This document shows, in pieces, positions 1,361-56,836 of a stretch of 64,000 bases of DNA. A program made the position numbers and the translations under genes. Positions within the stretch are counted from its first letter, which is position 1; each line of letters begins with the position of its first letter. This DNA is from Ophelia neglecta (Eukaryota), in contig OZ260663.1 of NCBI GenBank assembly GCA_965285935.1, positions 93,000,001-93,064,000 of the forward strand, read 5' to 3'. Below the pieces are notes generated by a model. The model made no database searches. It saw only the letters and a program-made list of their open reading frames with translations, and was not told the DNA's origin.

Positions 1361-1476
1361 GTGGGCAGCGAACACAACGAGTGGTGCGCACTACGCCGGC
1401 GCTCTATTCACCACCCATTGTAGCGCGCCGCGGCACTGTACACATCGAGTTCTGACACTCACACTACCAGTTTGTG
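1361..1476 (+). promoter_or_regulatory. Conserved CpG-rich upstream element of G1 (putative core promoter/5'UTR element)
   Basis: Blocks GCGCACTRCGCC, CCACCCATTG, CCGCGG, GAGTTCTG and ACACTWCCAG recur in the same order before the ATG of all eight full copies. Confidence 0.7.
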
Positions 1477-1605
1477 AGAGAATGCTGGGCGGAATACACG
1501 CAGCATGCTAAACTGCTTATTATAATATCATGTTTATAGCTGGATCACATTAATATATGATTATTCAGAAAAGATGAGGCGTTGGCATAAACACAAAGTG
1601 TTTAA

Positions 1606-4600
1606 ATGGATACGCAAAAAGCCATTATTCCTAGGATAGTGATATTGGGAGTGTGGATAACAACAGTAGGCTCGAGTAAGTACAGTCTATTTATCATAGG
1701 ATAAACAAGGAACGCCATCTTGAATATTTTCCGATGGATAATAATTGGGTTCGAATGCCAAGATTACGGTGTAAAGAGCAATCGTACTTAGTTAAAGCAA
1801 CATTCACGCTACTTTTTTGTTTATAATGCATAGCTAAACACAGTTCATCGCAAGGAATACCATTTATATCTTGAGGTCACGTTTTTTACGTTGATGTGGG
1901 TTGATGTCTGCTCCTTTGTTGACATCCATGTACTGACATCTGAGGAATATCGTGATATATTTATAGGTCTGTTATTGGGTAAACCCACGGGCGGGTACAT
2001 ATGTTGACTCGGGAGTGTTTGAAAACCAGATTTAACTATGTCTATGAACTAAATTTAGGATATAATGTATCAGCTAAAGGCAGCGCGTGTAAACCAAGAA
2101 AAAAACAACGTAACCAATCTTGCTAGGTTCTGAAAAAGATAAATAAATCTATGATCGCCTTATTGTCTAACGAACCATGTACACAGCAAAAGCCAATTTA
2201 TAACCCCCCCCCCCCCCAACAACAACAACAAAAAAGAAATAAATAATAAAACAAAACATTACCGTAGCTTACAACATATGTGTATTTAATATACAAAGTC
2301 ATGCGAACAAATACACGTGTATTTGTAGTCTCGTGCAAATAAACATGTACAAAGCGGTTCAAATGATGGGGAACCGTCGTGAATTAAATCAAGTCATATT
2401 GCGGGTGCTATATTCTCTATTATTGGTTAACTTTATGGACACTGAATATGTCATTAGAATACATAAAGTAAAGTTCGTTTGCATCAAATGCCACCCTTTT
2501 CTGCTTCCAATCATTTTATCATAATAAGATTGAAGATGTAAATAATCGGGGTTTTTTTTCTCAACCGACAATTTAGTTAACATGTAAGTTTTACAGGATA
2601 ATGCTAGGACTATGTACGAGGAATTTTAGAAACAAAAAGTCAAAATAACATTGATTATAAGAAATGCATATATTGGACTAATGTATGATATAAATTACTA
2701 CTATCGAACACACTGTGCGATTTTTATTCGGCTATGTCGCTGTTTAATTTAAACTTAGCTATTCCATTGTATTTTTCTATTTATCATTTAACCTCATCAG
2801 TTGTTAATCCACGACTATTGTACTGGAAAAATAAAAGTGGTTTTTGATAAAAATATAATGTGGTTTAAATGTTGGTTTGTCGAAAGGGTATCCAGTCCCT
2901 TATTTTTCTTAAATAATGTAGAGCATTCATCCATGTGTTCATTATTAAATTAAACATAAAGACGCCTTTGTAGGATATACAGATGTGGGGCTAATTGATC
3001 AACTCCCAAAGAACCTCCTAATACTAAACAAAACACATGCGATTTTGCTCCCAATAGGACAATAAATTTGTGTATTGTACGGTAATCATTCTCATTCTTC
3101 GTAATTATTGCAGTAGTAGAGCAAGACGTTTGCTTGTGGAATACATTCGACGCTAAGTGTGAGGAGAATGAGGTTATACAAATAGAGCACGCGCACTATG
3201 GAAGAATGTCAGTAGGGAGCTGTATACCGACGACAGCTGGGTACGAGATGGGGTGTCAGGAAGACGTACTCAGTTATTTGGACTCGGTTTGCTCTGGACG
3301 ACAGTCGTATCAACTAAGATTGTTAGATTACCTGGCCACCAAGGACCAGCCCTGTCAACTAGGCCTGACGTCTTACCTACAGCTACAATACAGCTGCATT
3401 AGTGGTAAGTAAGACATATGGAATCTCCGATTCAAGGGTCGGCTTTTGTACAAGTAAACTTATAATGAAAAATGAAAAAATTGTCAAATACAAGACTGAT
3501 TGATACAGCATGCTTCATATTTAGGTGTTGCAAGAAATGCATATCTAACAATTGACTAATAATGACTAAGGTCAATGTAAGCATGGTTGGGTAACGTGTA
3601 GGTCTTTATTATACCCCCCCCCCCCAATCCTGCCTATTACATCCAATCCGCACCAAACCCATAAATTACCCCCCACCCCCGGCGCATTTCCTCCCTATTA
3701 CTGGCCCCAACTATCTTTGCGCTGTGTGTGTAACTTTTCTAAAACACCTCATGCTGTAACAGAGAGATGACTTAAATATTGTTCCCAGTGATGTCACTAG
3801 ATCATTGCCAAATAACAAATAAGAGTAGGCCTATACGCATTTTGGTATTTTTCAGTGCACGTCTCACCAAAGGAGTGTACCGGAGATCTCCAATTAGTTC
3901 AGGGAACCCGAGGTTTGTTGGCAAACGTCATTACTGAGCTGACGGGTCAGGGATCTGCCGAATGTCCCTGGGTTGTACGAGGGTCCCCTGGACAAAAAAT
4001 ACGCCTCACATTACATGACTATGCAGTGTGGACCGCTCCTCCGTCAGAGGGGGGCGGACCTGAAGGACGAAAGCCCGAGAGGTCCGATATATGTCATATA
4101 TACGCAAAGGTAACAGAAGGTAGGCATAGTTAGAAGGCACCTAAGATGTTATCATCAGGTTTTTCCTCAAATCCATTGAATTTATCTTGGAAAATAAATT
4201 GCTACTGCATATTGTTACCTTTAGAGTCTACTAATCGTTCCATAACCCTGTGTGGGGGTGAGACGAGAGAGAAAATAATATACCTATCGGAAACGGAGAG
4301 CCTGCAGATCGCTTTAACCAACCCTAAGCATACCCGACACGCGGCTTATTTCCTATTACAATACGAAAGTGAGTGGTGGACTTTTGCGAATAAAACTTGT
4401 TTTCAAAAACAATTGAATCAATGCTGTAAATAAATCATGTCAGTTTTGAGCAGTTTAACAACTCGCACAAACGTACTAAACAGCTACTGCCTTTTTCAAT
4501 TTTAGTCACAGGATGCCCAGATTTCTTTCCACCGGAAAGCGCTGTTGTCGAGCGTCTCGAGAACGAAATATCAGTGAAATGCACCGCTACCGGAAGTGAG

Positions 4601-5879
4601 TGGCGTTTGTTTTGTGAAGGGACGCAGTGGACCTCAACAGAGGAAATCACCAACTGCACAGAAGCAGGTTTGTAGAATTAGTTTAAAAATATAAGATTGA
4701 AATACTATATCAACAAACTGTCAAAAAATACAGCACCCAATATACAGAATGATTAACTCAAATGAAACGTGGGGGAAACTAGACAGGGTTACATTAGCCG
4801 AAGCAGAATATCTCGGCAATAATTTTAAATGTTAAGAAAGAAAAGTGTCATCTTCAATGTGCTACTTGCATTTACAGGTGGTCTGTCTGTGTCTATTGGT
4901 ACTGTGTTTAACAGTGTATTAACCCTGCCACAATGTGAGTTTGGGAATGTTGTTTATTTCACGTTAAATGAGTATTGTGAGGTGAAATAGGTTTTAATGT
5001 AATACTGTTTTAAACACTACAGTCTTTCGAAAAATACATTCAGTTAATTGGAATTATGAATAAGCCGTTAAGTTTAATAATATTTTCAATATTCTTTCGC
5101 CTCACGGTTTAACCCTAAATAGTGAATTTCTTATAATGAGAATATTTTTTCAGGGATTCTAATTCTTATGATAATAGCAGTTGCTGTGATTATCGCAGTC
5201 CCCATACTTGTGATTGGTATTGTGGGCTTACGAAGGTAATTGTACAGACATGTCATTACTGTTGTTTCTAACTAGTACACACTCAGCATGGAATTAAAAT
5301 ATACACATCTTTAACAAAATGAAAAACAGGTAATAAATCCGATAAAGTTGTCTTTATTTTGGTCATAGGAAGCACGACCCGGTGACTGAGTCACACCTAC
5401 AGACGGATGTTGGGAAGTACATGTCAGATTCAGAGCATATTGTTCAGGAGCGGGATCCAATGTTATGCAAAACCGAGATATTACAAACATATACCAGAGG
5501 TAGGGAATATACCACGGCCGCATACAGACACATGGATGTGGGCCCGGACGCTAGTCCAGCTGGTGGAGAATTTCCACCTCTGCCTCCACCACCAACGGCA
5601 TCCATGCCAGACGCCGAGAATGCTATAGTCCAAGGGACACTAAGTCCTGACAGACATCCGCAGGACAGTTGCCCAGGCACATTCAAACCACCTCACATTG
5701 AACATAAATATGAGTCCCCAATTGTGCTACAGCGCCCTCACGGTGATAGGACCAGTACGTTTTATAACGAGCTGGGGCCAGGTCACGATCACGTCCAAAC
5801 GCCTTCATCGTGTGGGCACGCTGAGAGTGACATCGAGATGCTTGGCCTGAACCCAGTAGAGTCCACAGTGCCGGAGTAA
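1606..5879 (+). CDS. G1: type I membrane receptor, SUEL lectin-like + CUB + sushi-like + TM + Tyr/Pro-motif tail (subfamily A, ~526 aa)
   Basis: GT-AG exons: 1606-1675 (signal MDTQKAIIPRIVILGVWITTVGS), 3114-3404 (SUEL: AHYGR...CSGRQ...QPC...SYL.Y.C), 3856-4119 and 4225-4368 (CUB: ECPW...GQKIRLTLHDY...C...LCGG...FLLQY), 4506-4667 (4-Cys sushi-like), 4878-4934 (stalk), 5154-5235 (TM WILILMIIAVAVIIAVPILVIGIVGL), 5369-5879 (tail). Total 1581 nt, open frame. Confidence 0.88.
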
Positions 5880-55600: not shown

Positions 55601-55896
55601 GTACTATTCACGGTACACTTAACCGTGATCGCTATCCACAGACAACACATCCTTTTGTCGAACAGCGGTTTTGTAATGAGTGGCCAAATTCCTTACGGCG
55701 CACACTCAATAACGGTAAAACCAAGAACCATTTCTACCACGAGTTAGACCCGGAACATATTAGTGTTCATACTGGGCTCCCACCTGGTCACACAGTATCC
55801 GAAGTGGAAGCATTCGGCGAGGACCAATCCACGGTGCATCTCCCAGATGTGCTTTCTTCTTCGTCAAGTGGTCCCAACAAGTGTGACAACGTTTAA
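49663..55896 (+). CDS. G7: SUEL-CUB-sushi-TM receptor (subfamily B, ~549 aa, recombinant mosaic)
   Basis: Exons 49663-49732, 52503-52790, 53606-53884, 54129-54272, 54469-54630, 54763-54831, 55013-55094, 55341-55896. 1650 nt open frame. Confidence 0.88.
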
Positions 55897-56720
55897 AGGT
55901 GAAATGCTCCTCCGCTTGCACAGGTAATGGAAATACGGTACAAATTACCCCTGGGCAGGTTATGGAATTCATTCATACGTGTTGAACATTTTCAAGCCTC
56001 TTCGCCATGAAAGAATAAGGCTTCAATTCAGACTGATTTCTTTCATATAATTATGTATCTCAGATCGGATTACAAGCCTGGACTTAATTGACAATCGCAG
56101 TATAATCAATTCGAGACAGTTCACCAAAACCTACTTGAGGAAGAACTTACAGTGGCCAATCTACTACAAAACATCAGTATGCGAAACAAAACAACAACTA
56201 AAGATTAATATCTGTTGTGGGAAACAGGACATATTACCACTCATTAGATGGCACAAATTATGTACATGACTGTTGGTCGGAAAGATATGTGGGCCTAGGA
56301 TGCGTTTCAGCATATGTAAATACGACTTGAGCAAACGAGAAAAAATATTACATTTGACTCTTCAACCAGCACGCCGATCATAAATAGTGTGTGATATAAA
56401 TAGAATTAATCAAAATAAATTGTGTTTATTTGGGTCTTGATATATCCCCGAAAAAAATCGCTATTTTGGATTTATTACTTAACAGATAGAAATAGCATTG
56501 CACACCCGTTAACTAAAAATCAATTTCTTACTCGAAAAAGTTCGGTAGTGTTTGGCCAAAGAATTCTTTGGCTCCTGCTTATCAACAAGTGCTTTCTTAG
56601 CCTGACGTATAGTATAATGCCAAAACGTAGAATTAAATACAAGGTAGGACTAACGTTGACAGATGCCATTTGAATTCGTTAGTCTAGTGTTCAACCTTCA
56701 CCTATCGTGACACAGAATGT

Positions 56721-56836
56721 GTGCGGCGCGAGGCGAGCGAGTGATATGCGCACTGCGCCGGCGCTACGTTAACCACCCATTGCACTCAGCCGCGGTACTG
56801 GGTACAATGAGTTCTGATACTAACACTACCAGCTTG
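56721..56836 (+). promoter_or_regulatory. Conserved upstream element of G8
   Basis: Same motif series upstream of ATG 56875. Confidence 0.7.

Follow-up and report, generated by a model that had tools for sequence, protein, structure and literature searches.

A conserved cassette ahead of clustered SUEL-CUB receptor genes in the annelid Ophelia neglecta: a probable shared promoter

What is the role of a short CpG-rich cassette that recurs ahead of the genes of a large receptor cluster in Ophelia neglecta, and why does it stay the same while the receptors diverge? The window, a stretch of 64,000 nucleotides (assembly GCA_965285935.1, contig OZ260663.1, positions 93,000,001 to 93,064,000 of the forward strand), is part of a ~1-Mb locus made up of two head-to-head arms of tandem receptor genes, and all 103 cassette copies found lie inside this one locus. 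We put the probability at about 75% that the cassette is the shared, TATA-less proximal or core promoter of the ~90 clustered receptor genes, maintained by purifying selection.

The receptor cluster and its cassettes

The cassette stands ahead of each gene encoding a SUEL-lectin/CUB/sushi-like/transmembrane receptor and is present for 89 of the 90 gene bodies, a total derived from 91 exon sets, one of which is an internal duplicate. The first gene of the plus arm is an apparently complete gene body without its own cassette, the minus arm opens with a gene that bears a cassette and has no other gene upstream, and no cassette was found after the last gene of either arm. The receptor ectodomains share 53-63% amino-acid identity, and domain-wide positive selection was not seen among 60 close, non-independent pairs (dN/dS 0.18-0.43).

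Eight cassettes had been predicted on the + strand of the window, one before every gene, and all eight are confirmed at those coordinates, each ahead of a signal-peptide exon. The boxes GCGCACTRCGCC, CCACCCATTG, CCGCGG, GAGTTCTG and ACACTWCCAG are each present in 8/8 copies, where 0.02 occurrences of CCACCCATTG are expected per shuffled window, and the TGCGCAC core, predicted for most copies, is present in seven of the eight. The predicted extent of ~115 bp needs revision, as strong conservation covers only about -92..+4, with a weaker tail reaching +35. The features are as follows.

1377..1503, + strand: cassette of G1, -92..+35 around the initiator-like A (+1 = 1469)
1387-1403, 1412-1422, 1425-1432, 1447-1452, 1457-1468, + strand: boxes A, B, C, D and E of the G1 cassette
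1606..5879, + strand: gene G1, open 524-aa frame over 8 exons in a GT-AG model (1606-1675, 3114-3404, 3856-4119, 4225-4368, 4512-4667, 4878-4934, 5154-5235, 5369-5879), encoding in order signal peptide, SUEL, CUB (two exons), sushi-like, transmembrane and Tyr/Pro-rich tail
1710..1721, + strand: second conserved non-coding motif, GCCATNTT, ~33 nt into intron 1, which we take to be YY1-like
6197..6323, + strand: cassette of G2 (+1 = 6289)
6423..12111, + strand: gene G2, exon set as in G1
17195..17321, + strand: cassette of G3 (+1 = 17287)
17421..22260, + strand: gene G3, exon set as in G1
22872..22998, + strand: cassette of G4 (+1 = 22964), near-intact (1 mismatch in 50 conserved positions) ahead of a broken gene
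23098..30002, + strand: gene G4, no second CUB exon detected and a stop codon within the sushi-like exon
34569..34697, + strand: cassette of G5 (+1 = 34663), short-leader class
34707..41231, + strand: gene G5
39816..39829, + strand: look-alike of the CTCF consensus (exact) within the G5 sushi-like exon, coding PPEGA
42054..42182, + strand: cassette of G6 (+1 = 42148), short-leader class
42192..48745, + strand: gene G6
49525..49653, + strand: cassette of G7 (+1 = 49619), short-leader class
49663..55896, + strand: gene G7
56737..56865, + strand: cassette of G8 (+1 = 56831), short-leader class
56875..63800, + strand: gene G8

G4 is likely a recent pseudogene. The domain calls in G1 derive from Pfam SUEL_Lectin for SUEL and from Atlas features only for CUB (0.93), and 'sushi-like' is a label given from the Cys pattern of an exon with no Pfam match. 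Three runs (contigs, one sample) over 16500-30500 cover introns, with no clean GT-AG joints among the matches listed, and are thus uninformative on expression.

Composition, conservation and decay of the cassette

The cassette is a row of near-invariant boxes with fixed spacing. Across 2594 distant pairs, boxes A, B, C, D and E are 85, 95, 84, 96 and 90% identical and the spacers 42-63%; the boxes stand at 84-96% against 40% at silent sites. Box A is spaced 26 nt from B in 75/77 copies, B 35 nt from D in 67/78, D 10 nt from E in 75/77, and E 12 nt from the +1 A in 78/79. Two copies of GCACTGCGCCG in the region of boxes A-C lie 32 bp, or three helical turns, apart, and the bases of CGCT at -69..-66, a 4-mer that is weak by itself, are 99, 98, 96 and 94% conserved. 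The description of the element as CpG-rich in an AT-rich background holds, with 9.4 CpG per 97 bp against 3.1 in the cluster and a GC content of 57% against 38%; the observed/expected CpG ratio is 1.21 in the cassette and 0.86 in the cluster, whose background is only mildly CpG-depleted. At consensus CpGs in intact genes, 66 TG/CA changes are found against 45 others, no clear excess and hence no sign of germline methylation.

The cassette is 80% identical across 80 genes (3160 pairs), close to the 78% of second codon positions and well above fourfold-degenerate sites (43%) or flanks and introns (35-55%), and the changes per taxon follow suit (0.082 for the cassette, 0.236 for fourfold sites and 0.074 for second codon positions). 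A cassette no better conserved than its flanks, the outcome that would have spoken against the original prediction, was therefore not what was found. Its retention between subfamilies A and B is likewise borne out by the 12 window pairs that remain with the broken G4 left out, where the cassette reaches 80%, fourfold sites 45%, the upstream DNA 35% and exon 1 60%. Cassettes in front of broken genes have decayed: the median number of mismatches is 2 in 83 intact and 9.5 in 16 broken genes (P=1e-4), and deletions are present in 5/83 and 8/16, respectively (P=6e-5), where 'intact' denotes in-frame exon coverage rather than full splice models and the consensus was built from intact genes, a slight bias in favour of the intact set.

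The similarity could alternatively stem from gene conversion or recent duplication rather than functional selection. The cassette tree conflicts with the coding tree at 12 of 20 well-supported splits, suggesting that local conversion or unequal crossing-over contributes to the similarity of neighbours, and for some few neighbours the cassettes match at 95-98% while their fourfold sites stand at about 50%. However, conservation lies in the boxes, with spacers falling to 42%, persists between the oppositely oriented arms (80% versus 42%, 1584 pairs) and is lost ahead of broken genes within the same array, and just 2 of the 2594 distant pairs reach 95%. This explanation is already largely refuted, and we give it hardly any weight.

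The cassette is not dispersed: 47/47 and 62/65 genome-wide pattern matches and 40/40 scored matches of a DNA search lie inside the locus, in a test of two patterns and one DNA search that could miss diverged copies. A dispersed repeat (SINE/MITE) was rejected, since nearly all pattern matches fall within the locus. Four dispersed SUEL-CUB relatives (C2, C5) have no cassette in 30-kb stretches, outside which their first exons may fall. Matches in metagenomes (120, of which 80 were fetched) are GC-rich, with a median of 64%, and were set aside as chance, the best profile score being 25 bits compared with about 60-130 for full copies.

The promoter reading and its alternatives

A shared promoter code, as the original prediction called it, is supported by an element that is both confined to the locus and far better conserved than its flanks. 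The predicted lack of a TATA box is also seen, TATAWA being present at -45..-15 in 0/80 cluster copies. In 95/102 cassettes the signal-peptide ATG lies 39-159 nt past the +1 A, in two length classes, while the distance from the tail exon of the previous gene ranges from 367 to 14,465 nt (n=100). On sequence grounds, the start site would lie at the initiator-like CCAGTT at the end of the cassette. The human initiator form BBCABW matches only 9/80 copies. By the initiator consensus forms in PMC1779564, YYANWYY is present in 56/80, and a pyrimidine-purine step occupies -1/+1 in 77/80. TCAGT is found in the +1 region of 2 of the 3 most diverged copies. On the reverse strand, an initiator at a fixed position was not seen at -220..-60. 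An MTE-like match at +18..+29, noted by eye in G2 and G4, was rejected as not general, +5..+35 being only 62% identical.

The leaders bear on where transcription begins. In the 26 short-leader genes the ATG lies 39-50 nt past +1 and only 4 upstream ATGs are present in all, whereas in the 54 long-leader genes the stretch from the proposed +1 down to the start codon holds 168 ATGs; taken together, the 80 leaders show no ATG depletion (172 seen, 180 expected). The many upstream ATGs in long leaders count against the proposed start site, and no intron signal in the leaders accounts for them, so a leader intron was rejected. Long-leader genes may start further downstream or may be damped by short upstream ORFs. 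These ATGs, together with a +1 A (91%) and +2 G (82%) that are less conserved than boxes B and D, would suit a promoter-proximal enhancer or activator module with variable downstream starts, in which CCAGTT is not an initiator. We consider this module unlikely, given the nearly ATG-free short leaders, the fixed spacing from box E to +1 and the TCAGT of diverged copies.

Other roles for the cassette fare worse. Its position at a median of 943 nt past the previous tail exon is compatible with a terminator or insulator that serves the 3' end of the gene before it, but at arm starts it goes with the downstream gene and none lies past arm ends. TACTRAC at -13..-7 resembles a splice branch point, yet roughly one in five intact genes lacks the acceptor-like AG at +1/+2. 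An ATG at -85, where present, opens a frame of 23 codons, but the A at -85 is only 59% conserved and the third codon position is not relaxed (0.85, 0.85, 0.89). We regard this group of roles as very improbable. A stem around CCGCGG with compensatory versions in G3 and G6-G8, and with it a structured 5' UTR, had also been proposed; the two stems use different alignment columns, offset by two, and are thus not compensatory versions of one helix, and there is neither a consensus fold nor covariation support, the suggested RNAalifold check giving only -0.08 kcal/mol. The G3 register does pair 72% of cells, its outer five pairs are mostly compatible and its covariation score is beaten by just 4/500 shuffles, but such a level is also reached in 5-25% of unconstrained related alignments and at two of the inner pairs 53 and 55 of the 79 rows cannot pair. 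Moreover, the G6-G8 register does no better than shuffles (163 of 500), G-test/APC places the stem pairs at ranks 276-8541 of 8646, the folding z averages -0.19 over 40 copies and Rfam has no match within the window. A structured 5' UTR or small non-coding RNA is thus scarcely credible.

If the cassette is a promoter, boxes A-C (-82..-37) would bind activators, and boxes D-E with CCAGTT would fix where the basal machinery assembles and where transcription starts. Any of the ~90 genes could then be turned on by one set of transcription factors. Each tandem duplication would carry promoter and gene together, so that ectodomains could diverge with the on-switch unchanged. With equal promoters, every gene would presumably be a candidate for use within a single cell type. 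Per-cell gene choice appears plausible; expression of only a subset of the genes in each cell is given somewhat less than even odds, and broad co-expression a little less again.

Candidate factor sites were considered by motif match. The analogy with the protocadherin conserved sequence element (CSE) stands for layout, with a fixed distance to the start codon and a conserved CGCT, and fails for identity: against a 14-nt CTCF consensus, and by consensus only, the best match has 3-5 mismatches in 80/80 copies, no better than in shuffles, so by this measure the cassette fails as a CTCF site and hence as a protocadherin CSE. TGCRCNC, presumably the MRE core, is a candidate site in 58/80 copies, and GCGCAYGCGC, which we take to be the NRF1 palindrome, is exact in 0/80, with a one-base-longer form in 39/80. 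The YY1-like motif of intron 1 is present in 57-61 of the 80 cluster genes. Besides the look-alike in G5, exact CTCF look-alikes lie at 47379, 54492 and 62379 and ones with one mismatch at 132, 20838 and 28675; within one mismatch the motif is found in 38/79 sushi-like exons, always in gene orientation. Its silent positions rank 5, 11, 37 and 73 of 84, and most carry the base that is rarest genome-wide, leaving the exonic motif an equivocal lead.

Comparison with known receptor clusters and SUEL proteins

Stochastic receptor choice from clusters occurs in vertebrates (protocadherins, olfactory receptors, KIR/Ly49) and arthropods (Dscam, sDscam, ant odorant receptors); a literature search found no such system for annelids, nor an earlier description of the cassette, although gene lists in paper supplements could include the family. 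Pcdh-beta genes are complete and have no shared constant exons, and the cluster genes are alike in this. According to PMC7811963 and PMC8787164, clustered protocadherins are likewise tens of tandem cell-surface receptor genes with one conserved element, the CSE, which contains CGCT and CpGs at a similar distance to the start codon. The CSE, however, is a single CTCF site (PMC7811963), whereas the cassette has several boxes over about 100 bp, and the proteins are SUEL-CUB-sushi-like rather than cadherin and lie in two head-to-head arms. The exonic CTCF-like motif in gene orientation recalls the exonic CBS of Pcdh-alpha but lies kilobases from the promoter. The likeness noted is one of sequence layout.

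KIR/Ly49 (PMC4222648) are also tandem complete receptor genes. They too have a conserved promoter core near the start codon, of 60 bp in KIR, with a YY1-type motif close by, which in the cluster lies in intron 1, and Tyr tail motifs. Intergenic gaps are short in both (about 2 kb in KIR, a median of about 0.9 kb here), but KIR has 4-15 receptors per genotype compared with about 90 genes, and the sequences are unrelated. Ant odorant-receptor arrays (PMC12393541) and chelicerate sDscam 5' cassettes (PMC10084454) provide invertebrate cases. Their arrays hold dozens to about 100 variants, gene and regulatory region are duplicated together, and one promoter is chosen. The receptors differ, and sDscam has shared 3' exons; no comparable sequence cassette is described in the available part of the ant study.

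A bolder proposal, which we hold to be rather unlikely, is that the locus encodes cell identity in annelids and arose separately from protocadherins and Dscam, as a system in which ~90 equal promoters compete, aided by same-direction intragenic CTCF sites, and each neuron or immune cell would show a random few SUEL-CUB receptors for self/non-self recognition, signalling via their Tyr-/Pro-rich tails. The ~90 receptors, divergent and selectively maintained, would share a promoter under as much constraint as their protein code, and the locus with its defined element offers a concrete entry to how an annelid cell acquires surface identity. The plain reading is also of value: 103 natural variants, with silent sites that are saturated, would give a footprint of a spiralian promoter at single-base level. 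To our knowledge, spiralian core-promoter grammar has been little studied.

The Glu of CE, the Asp of DPC and the Lys of YKYL in SUEL domains have a role in rhamnose binding. In the 80-gene profile these residues are replaced by L/F/N, Q and S, respectively, so rhamnose binding by the cluster domains appears unlikely. Solved chains of the same fold family, in which these residues are present, include the SUEL domains of a rhamnose-binding lectin and latrophilin (PDB 5h4s, 8suf). A homologue search with the SUEL exon gave no match among longer proteins. Annelid SUEL-CUB transmembrane proteins are on record as unnamed hypotheticals in Capitella teleta (ELU09978.1) and Helobdella robusta (ESO07367.1, ESO06911.1), and the Capitella protein and one from Helobdella resemble the cluster genes in domain order and in an HxYE/WxxP-type tail motif.

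Copies of the cassette and layout of the locus

The eight cassette copies of the window lie where the original prediction had placed them, each contains the motifs attributed to it, and each has downstream a signal-peptide exon whose donor is in phase 1; a shuffled window is expected to hold 0.02 copies of the cassette's central 10-mer.

Features of the window (forward strand; C5, and C2 and C7 below, are contig handles of this genome)
G000:C5:93.000-93.064 Mb: the window
1710-1721: conserved YY1-like intron-1 motif GCCATNTT / GAACGCCATCTT, ~33 nt (29-37) into intron 1, in 57-61 of 80 genes
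G1: signal peptide; SUEL lectin (Pfam PF02140); CUB-like (Atlas features); sushi-like; transmembrane helix; tail
39816, 47379, 54492, 62379: CTCF look-alike in the sushi-like exon, exact
132, 20838, 28675: the same look-alike, one mismatch

A cassette profile over 1.064 Mb returned 102 copies at E<1e-5 (43 minus, 59 plus), and one further copy lies at 93.507 Mb. The main cluster, at ~92.61-93.39 Mb, consists of two head-to-head arms joined at 92.933 Mb, and three diverged copies lie at 92.54-92.56 Mb. One of 91 SUEL-CUB-CUB-sushi exon sets is an internal duplicate, leaving 90 gene bodies, 89 of which possess a cassette; the exception is the first gene of the plus arm. At the junction (G000:C5:92,932,250-92,934,440), a candidate shared or bidirectional control region, this gene lacks both a cassette and a recognisable exon 1, and 2.2 kb separate it from the minus-arm cassette. 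Every gene of the cluster possesses its own tail exon, so there are no constant exons in common.

A dispersed repeat, which the original prediction had named among the observations that would count against it, was rejected by genome-wide searches that strongly diverged copies may escape: a box B-C pattern has all of its 47 matches inside the locus and a box D-E pattern 62 of its 65 (reversed controls 0 and 1), and the 30-kb stretches searched around four dispersed gene relatives hold no cassette. Groups of distant SUEL-CUB relatives lie at G000:C5 13.6, 35.0-35.2 and 67.9-68.1 Mb and on C2 at 45.3-45.5, 71.1-71.9 and 94.0-94.2 Mb; the four examined differ from the cluster genes in intron positions.

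Remnants of lost genes sit among intact members at window 16635-16863 (transmembrane and tail), 30916-31039 (decayed SUEL) and 31428-31517 (sushi-like). G4 (window 23098-30002) is likely a recent pseudogene: its second CUB exon was not found, being replaced by a high-copy stretch (insert about 28010-28640, a depth spike), and the next exon contains a stop. Inverted repeats of 45 nt at window 14182-14226 and 15944-15988, 1.7 kb apart, are possibly DNA transposon ends.

Selection on the cassette and its promoter reading

The cassette is real and under selection. In 80 of the 102 units, those whose five exons are in frame, whose exon 1 was located and whose cassette scores E<1e-12, positions -92 to +4, counted from the A of CCAGTT, are 80.1% identical over 3160 pairs, compared with 43.4% at fourfold-degenerate sites and 77.9% at second codon positions. 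Across the same number of pairs, exon 1 is 62.6%, intron stretches 35-55% and the upstream flank 36.9% identical, bearing out the expected excess over flanking non-coding DNA. Changes per taxon on the coding tree (79 genes, one misaligned gene dropped) are 0.082 for the cassette, 0.236 for fourfold sites and 0.074 for second codon positions. Its five boxes are 84-96% identical and their spacers 42-63% (2594 distant pairs), with nearly constant spacing between boxes. Within the main cluster, the 83 cassettes that precede intact genes have a median of 2 mismatches at 50 conserved positions and the 16 that precede broken genes or remnants 9.5 (P=1e-4); deletions affect 5/83 and 8/16, respectively.

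Several other explanations of this conservation were weighed. Of the 20 supported splits in the cassette tree, 12 disagree with the coding tree, which shows that neighbouring genes exchange sequence; such exchange cannot account for box-wise identity across both of the oppositely oriented arms, between which the cassette is 80% identical versus 42%. The structured RNA proposed earlier was not borne out: RNAalifold returned no consensus structure (-0.08 kcal/mol), and the two suggested stems pair different alignment columns. One stem scores marginally above shuffles (4/500), a level common without structure, and 2 of its 8 pairs are each disrupted in some 70% of rows; the other scores as shuffles do. 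Stem pairs rank 276-8541 of 8646 (G-test/APC), single-copy folding z-scores average -0.19 and the window contains no Rfam match. A protein-coding role was rejected on the absence of codon periodicity in the cassette's conservation.

We consider it roughly 75% probable, judging from sequence, that the cassette is a promoter, in keeping with the shared promoter code originally proposed; it would be compact, with a single constant set of factors recognising it. The cassette belongs to the downstream gene, given that 95 of 102 copies have the start ATG 39-159 nt past +1, that the interval back to the preceding gene varies 40-fold and that the arms end without a trailing copy. Its 3' end, which reads YYANWYY in 56 of 80 copies and TCAGT in two of the three diverged ones, fits an initiator, for which the forms TCAGTY and YYANWYY are described (PMC1779564). 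There is no TATA box, as predicted, and GCACTGCGCCG occurs twice upstream of the initiator-like end, 32 bp apart, flanking a near-invariant CACCCATTG. Counting against a promoter with its start at CCAGTT are the upstream ATGs of long leaders, 168 in 54 without depletion (4 in 26 short leaders); the start site is therefore inferred. Leaders form two classes, 39-50 nt and 107-159 nt, neither a single clade on the coding tree, and the long ones are rich in short upstream ORFs.

The receptors and comparable clusters

Modelled with GT-AG introns, G1 has an open frame of 524 aa, whose domain order, in which "sushi-like" is a label assigned here, recurs among profile matches including Capitella and Helobdella proteins, making an annelid host likely. 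At the amino-acid level the ectodomain exons share 53-63% identity, and their dN/dS of 0.18-0.36 (0.43 for the tail) shows purifying selection. The Glu, Asp and Lys of solved rhamnose-binding lectins and latrophilins are missing from the SUEL domain, suggesting that the ligand is a protein or something else. The tail retains YxEL (63/80), YxxP (49/80) and a poly-proline run (47/80), patterns typical of SH2, SH3 or EVH1 docking, and the receptors would suit a neural as well as an immune role. What SUEL lectins do in lophotrochozoans is described as elusive (PMC8878817).

Receptor clusters with common promoters are already known. In KIR genes, variegated expression is reported to be set by a conserved bidirectional core 60 bp upstream of the start codon (PMC4222648); ant odorant-receptor arrays are described as relying on bidirectional promoters and on read-through (PMC12393541), and chelicerate sDscam as selecting among as many as 100 cassettes by promoter choice (PMC10084454). 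A search of literature listings outside subscription journals found no account of this family, cluster or element; what is new is that the ~90 complete SUEL-CUB receptors of an annelid array would share a promoter constrained like protein. Each cell might express a subset of the receptors, at somewhat below even odds, and a full protocadherin-like identity code would be improbable.

Comparison with protocadherin promoters and CTCF

The protocadherin conserved sequence element (CSE) is described as lying at a near-constant distance before each start codon, with a CGCT box and CTCF binding, and Pcdh-alpha as having an exonic CTCF site too (PMC7811963). The predicted analogy holds for layout and CGCT, which the cassette shares, but not for CTCF: the cassette does not match a CTCF consensus and is therefore not a CSE, although it may act like one.

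The sushi-like exon does carry a CTCF-consensus motif: 38 of 79 genes have it with at most one mismatch, always in gene orientation. Across this animal's genome the motif is enriched, three variants giving 57, 19 and 19 exact matches versus 0 reversed. Against a CTCF site here, the PPEGA that the motif encodes is conserved, the silent positions within the motif rank 5, 11, 37 and 73 of 84, the variant rarest outside the cluster is the one in most genes, and one clade has lost it. The motif is a lead of fairly low probability. About a dozen genes carry a second look-alike, in reverse orientation, within or close to their tail exon. How spiralians use CTCF is described as poorly known (PMC10658182). 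Elsewhere in the genome, exact CTCF-consensus 14-mers in tandem, at ~35-160 bp spacing, lie at C2:111.539, C7:12.145, C7:105.707 and C5:6.05 Mb and are possible boundary arrays.
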